Assembly: GCA_038523235.1 (NCBI GenBank)
Contig: JBCBJQ010000035.1
Location: forward strand, 1-51,828
From: Cyanobacteria bacterium J06626_4
Lineage (GTDB): Bacteria; Cyanobacteriota; Cyanobacteriia; Phormidesmidales; Phormidesmidaceae
Direction of reading: 5' to 3'
DNA length: 51,828 nt
Part shown: piece by piece, positions 15,339-23,688 of the stretch
Layout: every line of letters starts with the position of its first letter
Numbering within the stretch: position 1 is the stretch's first letter
Translations under genes and position numbers: made by a program
The notes under the pieces: generated by a model
Database searches by the model: none
Told to the model about the DNA's origin: nothing
Seen by the model: only the letters and a program-made list of their open reading frames with translations

Positions 15339-16520
15339 TTATCCCTTGACGCACATCACCTGCTTGAGCGTAGCCACGACCTCAACCAGATCGGCCTGGT
15401 TGGCCATCACCTGCTCAATCGGCTTGTACGCACCCGGAATTTCATCCAGGACACCGGCATCTTTGCGGCACTCGACACCCGCCGTTTGCTGCACCAGATC
15501 ATCCAGCGTAAAGGCCTTCTTTGCCTTGGTGCGAGACATTTGACGACCCGCCCCGTGGGAGCAAGAGCAAAACGCCGCAGCAGCCCCCTTGCCCTTCACA
15601 ATGAAGGATTTCGCCCCCATTGAGCCGGGAATGATACCGTAGTCGTTTTTCTGCGCCCGCACGGCCCCCTTCCGAGTCACGTACACATCTTCGCCAAAAT
15701 GCACTTCGCGCTCGGCGTAGTTGTGGTGGCAGTTGACCTGCAGTTCTGGCTTAAAGGGCTTGCCACCCGCCAACTGCGTTTCGACCACCCGCTTAAACCG
15801 GGCCATCATGACCTCTCGATTGCGCAGGGCGTAGTTTTGCGCCCACTGCAGATCGCGCCAGTACGCCTCAAACTCCGGCGTGCCCTGCACAAAGTGCGAC
15901 AGATCCGGATCAGGCAGCTTCAGGCCCGCCAGCTTCGCCAGCGCTTTGGCTGACTCAATATGGCGCTGGGCCAGCATGTTGCCGATATGGCGGCTGCCAG
16001 AGTGCAGCATCAGCCAGACCTGGGCGTCGGTATCCACACACAACTCGATGAAATGGTTACCGCCGCCGAGGCTGCCCATCTGCTTTTGAGCTTTATCTTG
16101 GAGCTTTTGCACTTTAGGGTGCAGCTCCTTGAAGTCACTCCAGCCCTGCCAGTTGGTGACGTCTTTATCAACTTGCTGGTTTTGGTTAAAGCCAACAGGA
16201 ATCAGCTTTTCAACCTCGGTGCGAATCTGCTTGAGTTTGCCGTCGAGCTGATCGGCGTGATACGGGGTTTTGACGGCGCACATGCCGCAGCCAATATCGA
16301 CCCCCACCGCCGCTGGCACGATCGCTTCCTTCGTCGCCACCACCGAGCCGACCAGTGCCCCTTTACCCAAATGAACGTCGGGCATCAGGGCCACATGCTT
16401 GTGGACAAAAGGCAGCGAGGCCACATTTTGGGCCATCTTGGTTTCGTTAGCACCCAGCTCATGCCCCGCCCAAGACAGCACGGGCACCGCTGTTGATAGA
16501 TCTAATGGCATGTAAGGCAT
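15339..16520 (-). CDS. rtcB: RNA 2',3'-cyclic phosphate ligase RtcB
   Basis: MPDVHLGKG, VGVDIGCG, GGGNHFIE, HSGSR, HHNY, TRKGA, PGSMG, SHGAGR, DEIPGAYK. Confidence 0.97.
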   Translation of the reverse strand: MPYMPLDLSTAVPVLSWAGHELGANETKMAQNVASLPFVHKHVALMPDVHLGKGALVGSVVATKEAIVPAAVGVDIGCGMCAVKTPYHADQLDGKLKQIRTEVEKLIPVGFNQNQQVDKDVTNWQGWSDFKELHPKVQKLQDKAQKQMGSLGGGNHFIELCVDTDAQVWLMLHSGSRHIGNMLAQRHIESAKALAKLAGLKLPDPDLSHFVQGTPEFEAYWRDLQWAQNYALRNREVMMARFKRVVETQLAGGKPFKPELQVNCHHNYAEREVHFGEDVYVTRKGAVRAQKNDYGIIPGSMGAKSFIVKGKGAAAAFCSCSHGAGRQMSRTKAKKAFTLDDLVQQTAGVECRKDAGVLDEIPGAYKPIEQVMANQADLVEVVATLKQVMCVKG

Positions 16521-17130: not shown

Positions 17131-17589
17131 TTATGCCTCCACCAGATCCGTGGCCCAATTAAGCGCCTGAATCTGAGCGTCTAACTCACGATACTCGCGC
17201 GAAAGCTGGTCGATCTGGCGTTGCAGTTCAGCCACATTCACCGTGCTCACCAGCCGTAATTCCGATCGCATGTACCGCTCTTGCGAAATCGCTGCTGCCC
17301 CGATGAGGCTGTCATAGGCGGTGCGCTTGAGCCGTAGCGTATCTCGGGTGGCCAATACATCAGACAACACCCCAGCTTGAAACGGCGTAACCGAGTTGGT
17401 GCGATTAATTTGTTGAATCAACCGCGTCAGCTCGTCGGTGGTCGCTTCTAACTCTGCCAGCAATACTTGCGGATCTTCTGGCGGCTGCTCGCCTTCTTGC
17501 ACCCGAGCACTCCGCATCAGTCGCTGCCGCAGTTGAGCCACCCGCTTTTGGGCATCAGCTCGCAAAATCAAGGCTTCTGCCAACTTCAT
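17131..17589 (-). CDS. DIP1984-family coiled-coil protein
   Basis: 'MKLAEALILRAD...VQEGEQPPEDP...INRTN...IQALNW'; RBS AGGAGGTGA. Confidence 0.85.
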   Translation of the reverse strand: MKLAEALILRADAQKRVAQLRQRLMRSARVQEGEQPPEDPQVLLAELEATTDELTRLIQQINRTNSVTPFQAGVLSDVLATRDTLRLKRTAYDSLIGAAAISQERYMRSELRLVSTVNVAELQRQIDQLSREYRELDAQIQALNWATDLVEA

Positions 17590-17651
17590 CACTCTCACCT
17601 CCTGTTCGTAAATTTTGTATGGGGGAGCCGCATCGCGGCCAGTGCTAATCC

Positions 17652-17965: not shown

Positions 17966-18758
17966 TTACTTTGACTGCTGGGCTAACTGGTTCTTGATCA
18001 GCCGAATTTCCTTTTTATTGCACTGCTGTTTGCTCACCGCATAAACTTTGCGTCCTGCGATATATTCAGCAGTCTGGGCAGAGACCTGACCCTGCAAAAT
18101 ATCGGTAACCGGGTCGATGCAAATTGCTGGAAATTCAGCAAACGTCACCCGATACCAAATGCCCTTGAGTTGGCGATACTGATGATTAGCATCGATCGCT
18201 AAGACATCGGTCGGGGGAGTGGGTTTTGGCTTCCGACGTTTTTTCTCCACCAGACAAAGCAAGCCTGTTTCTGGATGGACGTAGAAGCGATCGTGATAAC
18301 TACTTACTAGGGGAGCAAAGCTGCCCCACTCTGGCTTTTCATATAGAACACCCTCAATGATTTCGGTGTGCCGAACCACGTCATCCCAGACATGACTGAG
18401 CACATGCTGTCCCGCCAAGGTGTTGGTATTCAACTGGCGGCACAGCTTGCTGTAAACGTCGTTCCAAGGTTGACCGACGTGCGATCGCAAAAACCGTCGC
18501 AGTGGCCCTAAATGATCAGACAAATACTTAGACTTGTCTCTCGGCTTAATCAAATACGGACTGAGTAAGCCATCCTCACTGGCCTCCTGGGTGAGTTTGT
18601 GCAAGCGCTTTTTGACACCCTTCAACTTTCGAGAACTCATCCGCATACCACTCCGAGGACGTTCAATGACAATTTCGCTCAAACGATGCTCGCTCATAGA
18701 TTTGACTGTGCATAAAGTTGGACTGCGATCGTTGGGTTGTGATGCGAAATGACGTCAT
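17966..18758 (-). CDS. Conserved basic hypothetical protein, probably initiated at 18758 with +1 shift at TTT-C
   Basis: 243-aa ORF from 18697 has no visible SD; SD-led ATG at 18758 joins it in the +1 frame without stops. Confidence 0.7.
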
Positions 18759-18818
18759 TGAACTCACCTCCGAGAGAAATTTAGAACTGCAAAAATCGCC
18801 CAAACGCCACAAAGCATT

Positions 18819-18919
18819 TGGGGTGACTGACGGGACTCTAACCCGCTAATACTGGTGTCACAAACCAGCGCCGCGATCGCTTTGGCTAGCCCCTCCGGGG
18901 CGGCTTCGCCAACAGTCAC
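18819..18919 (-). tRNA. tRNA-His(GTG) copy 2, interrupted by 24-nt insert (18889-18912)
   Basis: GTGACTG/CAGTCAC-C-CCA; CTGGT-TTGTGAC-ACCAG. Confidence 0.75.
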
Positions 18920-18921
18920 AG

Positions 18922-18995
18922 TGGATTCGGTGGGAGTTGAACCCACAACCTCCTGTGTGCAAGACAGGCGCTCTCCCAGTTAGAGCTACGAACCC
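18922..18995 (-). tRNA. tRNA-Ala(TGC)
   Basis: GGGTTCG/CGAATCC with G3.U70; loop CTTGCAC. Confidence 0.9.
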
Positions 18996-19000
18996 AAGAG

Positions 19001-19097
19001 CAGGCGTGGCAGGAGTTGTTCGCAAAGCGTCTCCGGAGGAGAAACCTACACAGGTCGATTTAGAAGACCGATGCCCTTTCCATTAGGCGACACGCCT
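19001..19097 (-). tRNA. tRNA-Arg(TCT), interrupted in T-loop (19019-19042)
   Basis: AGGCGTG/CACGCCT; loop CTTCTAA; GTAGG-TT[24 nt]CAACT-CCTGC. Confidence 0.8.
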
Positions 19098-19102
19098 ATA
19101 TC

Positions 19103-19177
19103 TGGTAGTCCTGGTAGGAATTGAACCTACAACCTCTCGTTTGTAAGACGCTTGCTCTACCGTTGAGCTACAGGACC
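19103..19177 (-). tRNA. tRNA-Val(TAC)
   Basis: Cloverleaf with CCA; loop CTTACAA; weak anticodon stem. Confidence 0.8.
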
Positions 19178-19182
19178 ACCCA

Positions 19183-19253
19183 AGCGAGTGATGGGAGTTG
19201 AACCCATGCGCTGAGACTGGCAGACTCAGATGCTACCGCTACATCACACCCGC
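19183..19253 (-). tRNA. tRNA-Gly(GCC)
   Basis: GCGGGTG/CACTCGC-T; loop CTGCCAG. Confidence 0.8.
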
Positions 19254-19259
19254 ATTGAT

Positions 19260-19334
19260 TGGAGCGAAAGACGAGATTTGCACTCGTGTCTCCTGGTTGG
19301 AAGCCAGGGATGCTAGCTGCTGCACTACTTTCGC
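19260..19334 (-). tRNA. tRNA-Gly(TCC)
   Basis: GCGAAAG/CTTTCGC-T-CCA; loop CTTCCAA; T-loop TGCAAAT. Confidence 0.85.
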
Positions 19335-19337
19335 AAA

Positions 19338-19412
19338 TGGGGCTGGTGACAGGAGTTGAACCTGCAACCGACTGTTTACAAAACAGTTGCTCTACCGTTG
19401 AGCCACACCAGC
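19338..19412 (-). tRNA. tRNA-Thr(TGT)
   Basis: GCTGGTG/CACCAGC-C-CCA; loop TTTGTAA. Confidence 0.9.
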
Positions 19413-19415
19413 TTG

Positions 19416-19492
19416 TGGACGCGGGGGTGAGAATTGCACTCACTGATTTGAAGGGTATGAACCTTCCGAGCCACTGTTGCTCCATCCCCGCA
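19416..19492 (-). tRNA. tRNA-Met(CAT), atypical
   Basis: TGCGGGG/CCCCGCG-T-CCA; GAAGG-TTCATAC-CCTTC. Confidence 0.7.
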
Positions 19493-19566
19493 TACCCCTG
19501 ACAGGAGTCGAACCTGCAACAAACTTGTTTTAAGCAAGCCATGTCTACCAGTTGCATCACAGGGGT
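19493..19566 (-). tRNA. tRNA-Leu(TAA), short variable loop, no intron
   Basis: ACCCCTG/CAGGGGT-A; loop CTTAAAA. Confidence 0.85.
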
Positions 19567-19578
19567 TAAGAACCTTAG

Positions 19579-19640
19579 TTTGACGATGCTAGATTTCAAA
19601 TTGTGCAAATCTAAAATTCAAAATCGTCAATCTAAAATCC
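19579..19640. repeat. STRR-type heptamer repeats (also 19717-19742)
   Basis: AAAATTC/AAAATCG/TCAATCT-like units between tRNA genes. Confidence 0.6.
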
Positions 19641-19642
19641 CA

Positions 19643-19715
19643 TGGGCTGTATAGGACTTGAACCTATGCACTGCCGCTTAAGAGGCGGCTGCTCTGCCAG
19701 CTGAGCTAACAACCC
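19643..19715 (-). tRNA. tRNA-Lys(CTT)
   Basis: GGGTTGT/ACAGCCC; loop CTCTTAA. Confidence 0.9.
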
Positions 19716-19748
19716 GTAAAATTGAAAATTCAAAATTTTCAATGCCAG

Positions 19749-19820
19749 TGGGTCGCCCAGGGGTTGAACCTGGATCTCTCCGCTTAAAAGGCGGCTGTAT
19801 ATCCGCTCTGCCAGCGACCC
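19749..19820 (-). tRNA. tRNA-Lys(TTT)
   Basis: GGGTCGC/GCGACCC; loop CTTTTAA; weak D-stem. Confidence 0.8.
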
Positions 19821-19827
19821 AGACAAG

Positions 19828-19903
19828 TGGTACACCGAGCAGGAATCGAACCTGCTATAACGCACTAATCAGGTGCGCGCGTCACCATTTTCGCCTTCGG
19901 TGC
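19828..19903 (-). tRNA. tRNA-Ile(GAT)
   Basis: GCACCGA/TCGGTGT-A-CCA; CGCAC-CTGATTA-GTGCG. Confidence 0.8.
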
Positions 19904-19919
19904 TTGAGCCTTCCCATCA

Positions 19920-20075
19920 ACTCCTTGACCCCAAGCAAGACTTCTGACCACTGAATGACATCCTGATTGGTACTCCTACTGAGAGTCGTATGTCCTTCAG
20001 ACAGATTGCGTCCACGCGTCAGTGTCTCCAAAGGAGAAACCCACACGTAGGCTATTTCTAAGGCAGCCGCCTCTG
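19920..20075 (-). pseudogene. Decayed duplicate of the tRNA-Leu(TAG)/tRNA-Pro(TGG) pair with 49-nt nested insertion
   Basis: Aligns by eye to 20229-20336; insert 19989-20037 sits in the Leu T-loop. Confidence 0.75.
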
Positions 20076-20104
20076 TAGACGGGCAGTCCACAGTTGCTTG
20101 TAAT

Positions 20105-20182
20105 TGGTGTGACCGACGAGAGTCGAACTCGTTAATACTGGTTTCACAAACCAGCCCCGCCACCACTTTGGGTTCGGTCACC
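20105..20182 (-). tRNA. tRNA-His(GTG)
   Basis: G-1, GTGACCG/CGGTCAC-A-CCA; loop TTGTGAA. Confidence 0.8.
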
Positions 20183-20199
20183 ATATATTTTGATGAGAA

Positions 20200-20275
20200 T
20201 GGTCGGGATGGTAGGATTCGAACCCACGACTCCTTGGCCCCAAACCAAGGCTTCTGACCACTGAATTACATCCCG
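20200..20275 (-). tRNA. tRNA-Pro(TGG)
   Basis: CGGGATG/CATCCCG-A-CCA; loop TTTGGGG. Confidence 0.88.
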
Positions 20276-20277
20276 AT

Positions 20278-20355
20278 TGGTGCTCCTGGTAGGAGTCGAA
20301 CCTACACATGAACTGTTTCTAAGACAGTCGCCTCTGCCAGTTGGGCTACAGGAGC
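20278..20355 (-). tRNA. tRNA-Leu(TAG), short variable loop
   Basis: GCTCCTG/CAGGAGC-A-CCA; loop CTTAGAA. Confidence 0.88.
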
Positions 20356-20404
20356 ATGAACAGGAGGATAGAGCGTGGCTAGGCCACAAGCTCATGCCCC
20401 CCGA

Positions 20405-20478
20405 CAGGGAAGGAAGGAATCGAACCCTCAAACATCTGATTCAAAGTCAGATCGCTTTGCCAATTTGCGTACTTCCCT
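20405..20478 (-). tRNA. tRNA-Gln(TTG)
   Basis: AGGGAAG/CTTCCCT; loop CTTTGAA. Confidence 0.88.
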
Positions 20479-20586
20479 ATATAACGCCGACCAAATCGCT
20501 GACTACACCGAGTAAAGTTGAAACCTTTGCCATAGAAGCGATCTGGCTCGCAGTCTGGTCCTAACTGGACTGGCGACTGCGATCAA

Positions 20587-20688
20587 TGGATGCCGAGGCT
20601 GGATTTGTTCGCGCAGCGTCTCCGTTAGGAGTTACCAGCATCTCCGTGATTCAGAGTCACAGTGACTTTCCAAGTTGTCCACTCGGCA
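20587..20688 (-). tRNA. tRNA-Gln(CTG), interrupted in T-loop (20608-20632)
   Basis: TGCCGAG/CTCGGCA-T-CCA; loop CTCTGAA; GCTGG-TA[25 nt]CAAAT-CCAGC. Confidence 0.8.
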
Positions 20689-20693
20689 ATGAA

Positions 20694-20768
<75 letters not shown>

Positions 20769-20773
20769 ATGTA

Positions 20774-20846
20774 TGGGAAGTGACAGGATCGAACTGTCAT
20801 CTCGCCGTCTTCAGCGGCACGTGAGCACCAGCTTCACCAACTTCCC
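20774..20846 (-). tRNA. tRNA-Phe(GAA) with G37
   Basis: GGGAAGT/ACTTCCC-A; TGCCG-CTGAAGA-CGGCG. Confidence 0.85.
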
Positions 20847-20849
20847 ATT

Positions 20850-20934
20850 TGGCGGAGAGTAGAGGAATCGAACCCCTAGCTGTTAACTACCCTGGTTTTC
20901 AAGACCAGTTGCCGACCATTCAGCGGTACCCTCC
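20850..20934 (-). tRNA. tRNA-Ser(TGA)
   Basis: GGAGGGT/ACTCTCC-G-CCA; loop CTTGAAA; long variable arm. Confidence 0.88.
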
Positions 20935-20940
20935 ATGAAA

Positions 20941-21043
20941 TGGCGAGAACGGAAGGATTTGTTCGCGTGAGCGTCTCCGTTAGGAGAAACCTTCAGTCTT
21001 CGGTTTCGTAGACCAAGATGTTTTCCAGTTACACCACGTTCTC
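20941..21043 (-). tRNA. tRNA-Arg(ACG), interrupted in T-loop (20962-20987)
   Basis: GAGAACG/CGTTCTC-G-CCA; loop CTACGAA; GAAGG-TT[26 nt]CAAAT-CCTTC. Confidence 0.8.
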
Positions 21044-21049
21044 ATCAGG

Positions 21050-21131
21050 CGGAGAGCAGTGGACTTGAACCACAGACGCCAATCCCATCTGTTTAGCAAA
21101 CAGCGCCGATCGCCTGATCGGTTTACTCTCC
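21050..21131 (-). tRNA. tRNA-Ser(GCT), possibly degenerate
   Basis: GGAGAGT/GCTCTCC-G; loop TTGCTAA; poorly paired variable arm. Confidence 0.7.
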
Positions 21132-21149
21132 ATAAATTTAGACAACATC

Positions 21150-21310
21150 AGTACGGGATAAGAGAGAGCCTACCTGCCTAGTCGATGTTCCCCTCTCGGG
21201 AGGGGTTAGGGGTGGATTTCCGGCTCATTGCCAAGGGGTTGACCCACCCCGGCCTATGGCCACCCCTCCCATGGAGGGGATATTTCAGCCAGGTTTCTTT
21301 AACCCATACT
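21150..21310. mobile_element. MITE-like palindromic repeat inserted in the tRNA array
   Basis: Imperfect outer inverted repeat; CCCCTCTCGGGAGGGG-TTAGGGGTGG...CCACCCC...CCCCTCCCATGGAGGGG. Confidence 0.6.
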
Positions 21311-21323
21311 CAGGTTAGACAGG

Positions 21324-21406
21324 TGGGCAGGGAGGGACTCGAACCCCCAACGGTCAGGGACGACTGGTTTACAATCAGCCTGCTTCAGCCATTTGCATAC
21401 CTACCC
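21324..21406 (-). tRNA. tRNA-Tyr(GTA)
   Basis: GGGTAGG/CCTGCCC-A; loop TTGTAAA; long variable region. Confidence 0.85.
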
Positions 21407-21409
21407 ATT

Positions 21410-21486
21410 TGGCAGTGCTGATGGGAGTTGAACCCACAAACATCGACTTGAAAGATCGACGGCTTTACCAATTTGCCTACAGCACC
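21410..21486 (-). tRNA. tRNA-Glu(TTC)
   Basis: GGTGCTG/CAGCACT-G-CCA; loop CTTTCAA. Confidence 0.88.
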
Positions 21487-21515
21487 GAGAAATTTCTACG
21501 ACGTCCGCCGTAGAA

Positions 21516-21586
21516 CGCACAGACCAGGATTTGAACCCGGACAAAAGGTTTTGGAGACCTTTGTGCTGCCGTTACACCATCTGTGC
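21516..21586 (-). tRNA. tRNA-Trp(CCA)
   Basis: GCACAGA/TCTGTGC-G; AAGGT-CTCCAAA-ACCTT. Confidence 0.88.
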
Positions 21587-21661
21587 TGGTCGCAGCGGCG
21601 GGAATCGACCCCGCACCTGTCGGCTTATGAGGCCGCAGCTCTACCGTTAAGCTACGCTGCA
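21587..21661 (-). tRNA. tRNA-Met or Ile2 (CAT)
   Basis: TGCAGCG/CGCTGCG-A-CCA; loop CTCATAA. Confidence 0.8.
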
Positions 21662-21662
21662 G

Positions 21663-21738
21663 TGGACTCCAGGGCGGGAGTTGCACCCGCGATTGCTGGT
21701 TTTGCAGACCAGCGCCTTGCTAACTTGGCTACCTGGAG
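21663..21738 (-). tRNA. tRNA-Cys(GCA)
   Basis: CTCCAGG/CCTGGAG-T-CCA (U73); loop CTGCAAA. Confidence 0.88.
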
Positions 21739-21741
21739 ATT

Positions 21742-21824
21742 TGGTGGAGACGTGGAGAATTGAACTCCAGTCCTGCAGCCGTCCATTTGTCGGTTTCGGA
21801 GCAGTCAACTCCAGTTGCGTCCCC
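21742..21824 (-). ncRNA. Minimal tmRNA-like RNA (tRNA-like domain only)
   Basis: GGGGACG/CGTCTCC-A-CCA with G3.U70; D-region CAACTGGAGTTGAC; GGAC linker before T-arm; no anticodon arm or tag ORF. Confidence 0.7.
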
Positions 21825-21864
21825 ACGCACGAGGATGACCTGCTTCTGAGCAACATCCTCAACA

Positions 21865-21941
21865 TGGAAGCCTCGACGGGAGTTGCACCCGCTGCTCTGT
21901 GACTGAGAATCACAGCGACTTATCTATTCGTCCACGAGGCT
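21865..21941 (-). tRNA. tRNA-Glu(CTC)
   Basis: AGCCTCG/CGAGGCT-T-CCA; loop TTCTCAG. Confidence 0.75.
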
Positions 21942-21946
21942 ATCAA

Positions 21947-22135
21947 TAGCGGTGGCGGGACTTGAACCCGCGAGTTACCCGGCACCTTAAAACGCGCTTC
22001 CCCAACCCACATCTCTGCTTCGTCAGGTGCACTGCAAATTCGGCGATCCGGCTGCCCCTTACGTGTAATACCTGGGGGGCTATCCTCCAGCTGGTTCAAC
22101 GTTTGCTGGCGCTCTACCTCCTGAGCTACACCGCT
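21947..22135 (-). ncRNA. 189-nt tRNA-like RNA with large multibranched domain replacing the anticodon loop
   Basis: Perfect acceptor AGCGGTG/CACCGCT, D-arm GCTC/GAGC, T-arm GCGGG-TTCAAGT-CCCGC. Confidence 0.75.
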
Positions 22136-22138
22136 ATA

Positions 22139-22213
22139 CGGGAATGATGGGATTTGAACCCACGATCGCTCGTTCGACAAACGAGTGCTTTGACCGGACT
22201 AAGCTACATCCCC
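22139..22213 (-). tRNA. tRNA-Asp(GTC), first gene of array
   Basis: GGGGATG/CATTCCC-G; CTCGT-TTGTCGA-ACGAG. Confidence 0.9.
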
Positions 22214-22285
22214 AAGGTGGCAAATATTTAGTTTTCAAGGTTCTAAGGGCAGATTGTCAGCGCTGGGTAAGAGCGTGAAATCTTT

Positions 22286-22323
22286 ATACTACAAATGTAG
22301 TATACATACTACAAAAATGTCAA
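22286..22323 (-). promoter_or_regulatory. Array promoter overlapped by TGTAGTAT boxes (putative TrcR-type operator)
   Basis: Minus strand TTGACA-TTTT-TGTAGTAT-GT-ATACTACA-TT-TGTAGTAT. Confidence 0.75.
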
Positions 22324-22401
22324 GCGAATCCTTTGACTTTTTGGGAGAGGGCTGAGCAGGGCCTGGGCATAAGGGCTGAAGACCCTACTCATAGATGGGG
22401 C

Positions 22402-22782
22402 TCAAGCGGAAACCGGAGGCTCGCTGAGCTGCCACAGTCGATAGATGAGTGATTCGGCCCGCTCACCAATTGCCGCTAAAAACATCCCCTCGTGAGCATC
22501 GGGGTTGGCGGCAATCCAGCTGCCGCTGAGGCTGATTTCGACAAACTGGTCGTCGACAGGCAGCACTGCGGCACCGCGATCGGGCTCAGCTTGTAGTACG
22601 GTTTGTAACTGACCCAGCTCAGCAATTTGAGTGGGTAGCAAAAAGCCAGCGTGGCCCGGTTCTACATGCAAGGTCTGGGCCATGCCCAGCGTCAGCAGTA
22701 CGTGCTGAGCAATTACCCGCTCGGGAGCAGCCATGAGCCACTCCATGTAGAGTCCAATTTCGGTGTAGTTCAGCTTCAACAT
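22402..22782 (-). CDS. alr0857-like cyanobacterial protein
   Basis: 'MLKLNYTEIGLYME...VEISLSGSWIA...EGMF'; RBS GGAGG; follows the HNH gene. Confidence 0.75.
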   Translation of the reverse strand: MLKLNYTEIGLYMEWLMAAPERVIAQHVLLTLGMAQTLHVEPGHAGFLLPTQIAELGQLQTVLQAEPDRGAAVLPVDDQFVEISLSGSWIAANPDAHEGMFLAAIGERAESLIYRLWQLSEPPVSA

Positions 22783-22807: not shown

Positions 22808-23335
22808 TTAGTCAGGGGGATGTTCGGTCCAAAACTGTTCGGCAAAGGCCATGACCGGGTGCATGGGGGCTTTGGGTTTGGTTTTGAGGGTCAGATTGGC
22901 CGTCGGTAACAGGCGATCGCCCTTGGCGCTATTGCACGGGGCGCAGGCTGTGACGACGTTGTCCCAACTGTGGGAGCCGCCCTTAGAACGGGGTATGACG
23001 TGGTCAATGGTGAGCTGTTTGGAGCTGCCGCAATACTGGCAACGGTGCTGATCCCGGCGAAAGACTTCCCGGCGCGTCACTGGGGGCACTTTCCAATGCC
23101 GCTCACGATGGCCGCCCACCAAGCGAATGTGTTCTGACACCTGCAGGACGAGGCTGGGCGATCGCACCTCCCACTGTTGAGTAGTGCCAAACTCCAGAGC
23201 CTCAGCCCGTTCGGTCACCAGCAACACGACGGCTCGCTTTAAGGTGATCCGCGCCAGGGGCAGGTAGTTTTTGGAAAACACCACCACCGGATTTTTGAAC
23301 CGGGAGAGCGTTTGACTGGCTTGTTGTGTAGGCAT
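22808..23335 (-). CDS. HNH endonuclease (small McrA-like)
   Basis: 'VFRRDQHRCQYCG...LTIDHVIPRSKGGSHSWDNVVTACAPCNSAKG'; RBS GAGG before ATG 23335. Confidence 0.93.
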   Translation of the reverse strand: MPTQQASQTLSRFKNPVVVFSKNYLPLARITLKRAVVLLVTERAEALEFGTTQQWEVRSPSLVLQVSEHIRLVGGHRERHWKVPPVTRREVFRRDQHRCQYCGSSKQLTIDHVIPRSKGGSHSWDNVVTACAPCNSAKGDRLLPTANLTLKTKPKAPMHPVMAFAEQFWTEHPPD

Positions 23336-23348
23336 CGCTAAATTCCTC

Positions 23349-23389
23349 AAAAAAATAACCCCCGCTGCTGATAGTCAGTAGCGGGGGTT
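23349..23389 (-). terminator. Intrinsic terminator abutting the HNH RBS
   Basis: AACCCCCGCTACTGA-CTA-TCAGCAGCGGGGGTT-ATTTTTTT. Confidence 0.8.
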
Positions 23390-23670: not shown

Positions 23671-23688
23671 ATACTACACATGTAGTAT
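23671..23688. promoter_or_regulatory. Second ATACTACA-N2-TGTAGTAT operator
   Basis: Same palindrome as 22286-22303, within a plausible TGGACA-N17-TAGTAT promoter on the minus strand. Confidence 0.75.

Follow-up and report, generated by a model that had tools for sequence, protein, structure and literature searches.

A tag-less tmRNA homologue within a long tRNA array of a cyanobacterium

Transfer-messenger RNA (tmRNA) rescues stalled ribosomes by combining a tRNA-like domain with a short reading frame for a degradation tag, and the question raised by the locus described here is whether an RNA that keeps the two ends of tmRNA and nothing of its messenger part can be a gene in its own right, and what it might do beside a full tmRNA. 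The locus lies in Cyanobacteria bacterium J06626_4, on contig JBCBJQ010000035.1 of assembly GCA_038523235.1, whose 51,828 nucleotides (nt) are the whole stretch analysed, hereafter the window (numbered C35 among the 204 contigs of a 6.28-Mb genome). The original prediction placed at positions 21742-21824 an 83-nt mini-tmRNA, consisting of an alanine-accepting tRNA-like domain (TLD) without mRNA domain, and interpreted it as a stress-induced RNA able either to add alanine to stalled chains or to titrate SmpB. The gene is real and conserved. Judging from its sequence features, the mini-tmRNA is probably a functional tag-less tmRNA homologue and a regular gene of a long tRNA array, acting as a stress-regulated, alanine-accepting and SmpB-binding modulator of trans-translation.

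Anatomy of the mini-tmRNA gene

The mini-tmRNA reads as the reverse complement of 21742-21824, and its sequence and tRNA-like parts are those originally described, as placed by alignment to the Rfam tmRNA model RF00023.

21742..21824, minus strand: whole mini-tmRNA gene, 83 nt, tRNA-like domain only (52.2 bits with RF00023; 94 bits with the family covariance model, R1)
21818..21824, minus strand: 5' strand of the acceptor stem, GGGGACG (RNA positions 1-7, holding the G3 of G3.U70), from the RF00023 alignment, with covariation at 4:69, 5:68 and 6:67
21804..21817, minus strand: D-loop analogue CAACUGGAGUUGAC (positions 8-21; GG doublet, terminal GAC), aligned to the consensus cuGGaUUCGAC
21774..21803, minus strand: helix-2 stub and conserved core UGCUCCGAAACCGACAAAUGGACGGCUGCA (positions 22-51), in place of pseudoknots and tag frame, from the RF00023 alignment
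21770..21773, minus strand: GGAC linker 5' of the T-arm (positions 52-55), aligned to the consensus GGAC
21753..21769, minus strand: T-arm UGGAG-UUCAAUU-CUCCA (positions 56-72), without the T-loop insertion of some relatives, from the RF00023 alignment, with two of five pairs compensated
21742..21752, minus strand: 3' strand of the acceptor stem, CGUCUCC, discriminator A73 and encoded CCA (positions 73-83), from the RF00023 alignment

The RF00023 match covers exactly 21742-21824 (-) and clears, with 52.2 bits, a gathering score set at 47 (E 9e-18 in the window scan and 2.9e-19 in a smaller stretch), and its alignment spans model positions 1-374, with 24 nt replacing the 316 model positions that hold the pseudoknots and the tag frame. 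GGGGACG is aligned with CGUCUCC, CUGGAGUUGAC with the D-loop consensus, and the T-arm and ACCA with their counterparts, while the base of helix 2a, UGC...GCA, is aligned to the model together with its flanking GAC and GGAC (GAC-UGC / GCA-GGAC). G3.U70, A73 and the encoded CCA are read straight off the sequence, and the D-loop has no stem, as in the tmRNA model. Scans of shorter stretches at the gathering threshold gave no match (171 bases) or a truncated match of 23 bits only (401 bases), because the full-length match needed more flank. The core also displays a CGAAA motif a few nt past GAC, as do the tmRNA of the host, the Rfam consensus (gcGAa) and the RNA of mycobacteriophage DS6A, and the stub may be what remains of helix 2.

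The 83 nt leave neither a resume codon nor a tag frame nor pseudoknots PK1-PK4, in agreement with the claimed absence of an mRNA domain, and ARAGORN reads no tag peptide at this locus, whereas it does so in the full tmRNA of the host. The suspicion that the gene would score better as a decayed ordinary tRNA is contradicted on several sides, ARAGORN calling neither tRNA nor tmRNA at 21742-21824, the mini-tmRNA lacking the cloverleaf with D stem and anticodon arm of an RF00005-type tRNA, and the tmRNA model being the best match on the interval within clan CL00001, with no tRNA-clan model scoring above it. An integration-site duplicate of the 3' end of ssrA was considered and rejected, both ends being present, joined and conserved.

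Elsewhere in the genome a full tmRNA is found on contig C10 (127.4 bits, 386 nt; tag according to ARAGORN, ANNIVPFARKAAPVAA) together with a single SmpB gene, and thus the mini-tmRNA is an extra gene and not the housekeeping tmRNA. CCA is encoded by the mini-tmRNA; the full tmRNA of the host ends in CUU, CCA not being encoded. The array also has, as noted in the original prediction, its own normal tRNA-Ala(UGC), at 18921-18995.

Conservation, genomic settings and regulation

When 401 genomes of the phylum were searched at the DNA level, five others proved to have the core, and 12 more matched just 32 nt of the T-arm and acceptor end. The exact core pattern retrieved 83 stretches from 185,579 species genomes, and of the 80 that were fetched 79 are titled cyanobacteria and one 'uncultured bacterium'. 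At E <= 1e-10 the covariance model R1 recognises 87 sources, each with a single copy, although six loci of the phylum search are probably duplicate records among the 80 stretches of the pattern search. These copies, together with the compensatory base changes described below, take the mini-tmRNA beyond chance. When 151 genomes of the class were sampled separately, a copy was present in 12, the genome of the window included, and in none of the nine other genomes of its own family; such a patchy distribution fits a mobile array. The family is located on chromosomes and plasmids alike. Searches of mobile elements gave little: blastn against 72,556 plasmids returned a 40-nt match in a plasmid of Kovacikia minuta only, and missed the copy on plasmid delta of Anabaena that was later found by the covariance model; among 50,697 phage records, megablast and blastn detected scattered tRNA matches only and nothing that corresponds to the mini-tmRNA; and in IMG/VR the exact core pattern had no match, while a looser one had 18 loci, none of them a member of the family.

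Two genomic settings are distinguished. In 27 copies the gene belongs to an array with the order Asp, Glu(ctc), [Arg(ccg)], X, Cys, Met, Trp, Glu(ttc), where X is the mini-tmRNA, in a fixed slot near the 5' end, and CCA is encoded in 25 of them. The window shares this order (Asp, Glu(ctc), mini-tmRNA, Cys, Met, Trp), with tRNA-Cys beginning 3 nt past the CCA of the mini-tmRNA. Conservation in the same slot of other arrays, on which the original prediction had made its case depend, is therefore observed, and the family shows covariation. The remaining 60 copies stand alone, without array, nearly all in records titled Nostocales, CCA being encoded in nine, and 53 of them are followed by a conserved 212-nt RNA. 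Across both settings a design length of 82-84 nt is kept in at least 64 distinct sequences.

Pair counts were made on alignment A3, which contains 64 distinct rows and, being model-fitted, leans towards the given structure; it was used because in the MAFFT alignment the 82-nt subtype had its 5' end in the wrong place. The acceptor stem reaches 98.4% pairing and has three of its seven pairs compensated, 4:69 (GC/AU), 5:68 (CG/AU/UA/GU) and 6:67 (CG/UA), and the T stem is 97.5% paired, with two of five pairs compensated. The covariation score reaches 0.175 versus 0.074 in shuffles, a value attained by none of 500 shuffles, and every slid register falls below it. Of the 87 copies, 83 retain G3.U70 and all retain A73 while positions 4-6 vary, which is the pattern expected from selection for recognition by alanyl-tRNA synthetase (AlaRS). 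G13 and G14 are invariant (43 unique sequences). The helix-2 core is nearly invariant among the 64 distinct sequences, and for that reason shows no covariation in the 87-copy alignment; the Anabaena copy has one U-A to A-U swap within it.

The features that bear on transcription of the array in the window are the following.

18921..22214, minus strand: long tRNA array (trn-type operon) holding the mini-tmRNA (24 tRNAs by ARAGORN; 23 tRNA matches by Rfam)
22286..22323, minus strand: predicted array promoter, TTGACA, 18-nt spacer, TACATT (22323-22294), the sole promoter-like site on the minus strand of 18500-22500
18799..18822, minus strand: terminator-like hairpin and T run past the last tRNA, the sole terminator-like site on the minus strand of 18500-22500
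21825..21864, minus strand: spacer 5' of the mini-tmRNA, with a flank ..GTCATCCTCG.GCGT similar to the one in arrays whose Arg(ccg), as called by ARAGORN, lies about 4 nt upstream

Since one promoter-like and one terminator-like site bracket it, the array looks like one transcription unit, as far as such predicted sites allow. Three TGTAGTAT repeats, two direct and one inverted, overlap the predicted promoter (22286-22313), and a second pair lies upstream of an HNH endonuclease gene (23671-23688), with five hits in the window versus 0.37 expected. The same repeats and a similar leader are also present in the promoter region of the trn operon of Anabaena, their spacing in the window differing from the published 20-nt motif, which as available begins TGTW...

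In Anabaena/Nostoc sp. PCC 7120 a homologue of the mini-tmRNA is located on plasmid delta (NC_003273, 51736-51819 (-), equal to L112 2237-2320; R1 86.2 bits, E 2.3e-22), where tRNA-Glu(ttc) and tRNA-Tyr flank it within the trn operon. Its CCA is not encoded, it scores 31.9 bits with the Rfam tmRNA model, and it is not called by ARAGORN. According to the portions available of PMC8421152 and PMC10272220, this operon is silent and induced by ribosome-targeting antibiotics, its control is exerted via repeats whose sequence overlaps with the -10 box and through the repressor TrcR, and the TrcR regulon takes in rtcB and the HNH gene all8564, which is the Anabaena counterpart of the HNH gene of the window. 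The available texts of both papers contain no mention of tmRNA, ssrA or SmpB; in the searched part of the supplement of PMC8421152 the core motif was not found, and the array table there gives 17 tRNAs and no mini-tmRNA for Nostoc sp. PCC 7120. The proposed stress induction is in this way supported indirectly, by a homologue within an operon reported in these papers to respond to translational stress and by the shared TGTAGTAT promoter repeats. The sequencing runs listed for the stretch contain it as DNA contigs, with no RNA data set among them.

A promoter of the TTGACA...TGTAGTA type is found 50-119 nt upstream of the mini-tmRNA in 56 of the 60 stand-alone loci and within 900 nt in 17 of the 26 array loci with enough flank, versus none of 925 random 300-nt windows from the same loci. 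That Nostocales keep the mini-tmRNA behind a trn-type promoter without the tRNAs is the strongest argument that the RNA itself is under selection.

The RNA that accompanies the stand-alone copies deserves a description of its own. It is about 212 nt long (L012:1646-1857 (+) and 52 other Nostocales loci) and lies 42-355 nt downstream of the mini-tmRNA. Its outer frame is tRNA-like, with invariant G3.U70 and A73, a D-arm and a T-arm, and the anticodon arm is replaced by a long insertion that two helices close. Nested within this insertion is a second tRNA-like cloverleaf, which lacks an acceptor stem; the anticodon-like loop of this inner cloverleaf has 7 nt and is hypervariable (mostly CUA; also CUU, UUU, AGU, UCU, GAA and UGA). 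Rfam detects only the inner part, as a partial tRNA.

Proposed role and competing explanations

From the anatomy, conservation, covariation, operon position and shared promoter signature observed here, we infer how the mini-tmRNA may be expressed, processed, charged and bound by SmpB, and how it may affect trans-translation. One sigma-70 type promoter would drive it along with the tRNAs, and a TrcR-type repressor on the TGTAGTAT repeats would keep this promoter shut until translation is impaired. Excision of the mini-tmRNA would resemble that of a tRNA, with RNase P cutting the 5' end; AlaRS would then charge it with alanine via G3.U70 and A73, and the contacts with SmpB would be made by the D-loop, GAC/GGAC and helix-2a region. 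An RNA that lacks both resume codon and tag frame is limited to competing with the full tmRNA, presumably for SmpB and empty A sites, and this could happen either off the ribosome or through acceptance of the stalled chain, with other factors then bringing about release. In consequence, stalled chains would end with at most one added alanine in place of a degradation tag, or less canonical tagging would take place under translational stress.

Several aspects weigh against this interpretation and should be considered together: (i) given the probable duplication of six loci, the 87 copies amount to about 81 independent places; (ii) 23 of the 87 copies have an insertion of 22-44 nt within the T-loop, replacing U55-C56, and such an insertion is expected to upset the tRNA elbow if it is neither removed nor tolerated; (iii) four copies have lost G3.U70 or the 5' end (two of them the 5' end), and since all four have the T-loop insertion some copies appear to be decaying; (iv) one array subtype has CAC in place of GAC, and most copies have GGAU in place of GGAC; (v) two alternative pairings of the stub fit the sequence, the z-score of the minimum free energy is only -1.97, and the lack of covariation of the helix-2 stub in the 87-copy alignment leaves its fold not established; and (vi) according to the part of PMC4131195 available, the inhibition of tmRNA by a TLD is independent of chargeability.

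The last of these leads to the alternative that survives best, though we hold it to be unlikely, namely that the RNA is a pure sponge, which would hold SmpB (or AlaRS, or EF-Tu) away from the ribosome, so that trans-translation falls in stress, and would never donate alanine. In the available part of PMC4131195, strong inhibition of tmRNA in Escherichia coli is reported for a TLD-like molecule irrespective of chargeability, perhaps through titration of SmpB, and the genome of the window has one SmpB only, both of which suit a sponge. Nonetheless, a sponge needs no G3.U70, A73 or encoded CCA, yet the first two are kept (83 of 87 and 87 of 87 copies) where neighbouring acceptor pairs are free to change. 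The conserved G3.U70 thus argues for a role beyond simple titration, and does not prove it, inhibition being reportedly independent of chargeability.

Less probable still is that the element serves as a processing or structural module, marking RNase P and RNase Z cuts in a polycistronic transcript (in Nostocales, ahead of the 212-nt RNA) and having no part in rescue. Its position would suit such a task, with tRNAs within a few nt on both sides in arrays and as the first element past the promoter in Nostocales. On the contrary, the array tRNAs already supply cleavage sites, and the most conserved parts are the tmRNA-specific ones (the stemless D-loop, GAC/GGAC and the helix-2 stub with its CGAAAC core), none of which is needed by a cleavage signal.

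A decaying remnant of tRNA-Ala, or of an ssrA duplicate without its middle, carried passively by a mobile array, is a very improbable origin for the family: the arrays do hold pseudogenes (3 of the 26 trn-array genes are undetected in Anabaena, according to the accessible part of the trn-operon paper), the spacer at 21825-21864 that adjoins the mini-tmRNA is probably a decayed tRNA, the 3' remnant of the tRNA-Arg(CCG) seen in this slot in other arrays, some copies are damaged and the spread is patchy (12 of 151 class genomes, none of the nine others of its own family), but the 82-84 nt design persists in at least 64 distinct sequences with both tRNA-like stems compensated and the core nearly invariant, the tmRNA model beats the tRNA model on the interval, and the gene is kept with its promoter where the tRNAs are gone.

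If the mini-tmRNA is indeed a tag-less modulator of trans-translation, a broader and more tentative picture can be drawn, which we put forward as a possibility rather than as the expected outcome: that of a regulated ribosome-rescue switch in cyanobacteria, in which a TrcR-type regulon would make tag-less tmRNA when translation is impaired, so that the tagging tmRNA would lose SmpB and stalled ribosomes to it and unfinished proteins would meet a different fate. Such a switch may explain part of the trn-operon phenotype ascribed to the tRNAs, and in Nostocales the array would have been reduced to the mini-tmRNA and the 212-nt nested tRNA-like RNA (alanine identity, hypervariable anticodon-like loop), as a second, undescribed partner.

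The original interpretation is therefore supported in part, all of its parts that were open to testing having held; it missed its closest precedent, the TLD-only tmRNA of DS6A, as well as the reported inhibition of tmRNA by a TLD. As to what the finding means, tag-less tmRNAs had so far been noted in one phage and a few organelles, and such an RNA is now found as a conserved, apparently regulated gene in free-living bacteria, beside a full tmRNA. The reported benefit of the trn operon under translational stress may stem partly from the mini-tmRNA and not from the tRNAs alone. Anabaena PCC 7120 being genetically tractable, with deletion strains of trn and trcR and stress RNA-seq already published, the role of a lone tRNA-like domain becomes directly testable. 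Standard finders of tRNA and tmRNA miss the gene, ARAGORN being silent both in the window and in Anabaena.

Array surroundings and comparison with known systems

The array is dense, with 24 ARAGORN tRNAs and three further Rfam tRNA matches in 3.3 kb on one strand. It is flanked by the following genes.

22808..23350, minus strand: HNH endonuclease gene upstream of the array (Pfam HNH, 8.1e-17)
17966-18697, minus strand: 243-aa protein downstream of the array, without Pfam match
17131-17598, minus strand: DUF6847 protein downstream of the array
15339..16520, minus strand: RtcB RNA ligase gene downstream of the array (Pfam RtcB, 7.2e-127)

Gaps of about 190-215 nt within the array (21942-22137, 21132-21321 and 20480-20693) have no tRNA call by ARAGORN or Rfam. 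Two long tRNAs of the window, at 20944-21043 (-) and 19001-19097 (-), are called by Rfam and missed by ARAGORN; their T-loop insertions, of about 24-45 nt, are structured as two small hairpins, and analogous ones are found in relatives of the mini-tmRNA. In two other loci, L035 and L071, the junction between the 3' end of the mini-tmRNA and tRNA-Cys displays short tandem duplications, with CACATCTCCACCA-like units in L035 and ATCTCCAGGTCGC in L071.

The literature searched does not describe any tag-less tmRNA from cyanobacterial arrays, the tmRNA database itself not having been queried; the part of the PMC11915505 supplement available holds neither the motif nor a 'Nostoc' or 'Leptolyngbya' entry, which cannot show what that database holds. 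Compared with canonical tmRNA (RF00023; the host copy on C10), the mini-tmRNA shares the acceptor stem with G3.U70, the D-loop consensus cuGGaUUCGAC, the base of helix 2a, GGAC, the T-arm and A73, and differs in that pseudoknots 1-4, the resume codon and the tag frame of the canonical form (386 nt in the host copy) are missing from its 83 nt. With an ordinary tRNA-Ala it shares G3.U70, A73, the T-arm and CCA, but it has neither anticodon arm nor D stem.

Among reduced forms, PMC11915505, in its accessible part, reports tmRNAs without coding sequence in mitochondria and two plastids, with Nasuia and one uncultured lineage as the only bacteria possibly without a tag frame. The mitochondrial tmRNA of jakobids and oomycetes (RF02544) and the plastid forms of Mallomonadaceae, of about 65 bp, are likewise reduced, without tag frame and kept with SmpB, a comparison made for RF02544 by description and without a score, since cmscan keeps the best match per clan. 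These forms are the only tmRNA of their organelle and the mitochondrial ones are usually permuted, whereas the mini-tmRNA is extra, unpermuted and apparently regulated with tRNAs. The arrays of mycobacteria and mycobacteriophages (PMC5966550, as far as available) likewise have a tmRNA-type gene in a mobile tRNA array with HNH and rescue-related genes; they are called there simply tmRNA genes, and were compared with the mini-tmRNA by description only.

The closest counterpart is the tmRNA of mycobacteriophage DS6A, given as 'TLD only' in the available part of PMC4131195 (Table 2 and text) and as entry 11587 of the tmRNA Website. The gene was located, and at 83 nt it aligns end to end with the Rfam tmRNA model at 43.2 bits, the RNA of the window having the same length and 52.2 bits. 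Both have a 7-bp acceptor stem with G3.U70, a D-loop ending in GAC, a helix-2 stub with CGAAA, a T-arm and A73, and the phage encodes RtcB and an HNH protein, as the window does beside its array. This precedent and the report of TLD inhibition lower the conceptual novelty of the mini-tmRNA but, by analogy, support the idea of titration. Unlike the cyanobacterial family, the DS6A RNA is a single gene, in a phage of Actinobacteria where Rfam finds no tRNA (E <= 1e-4), whereas the cyanobacterial form constitutes a family, with a fixed slot in a regulated tRNA operon and a conserved core of its own.
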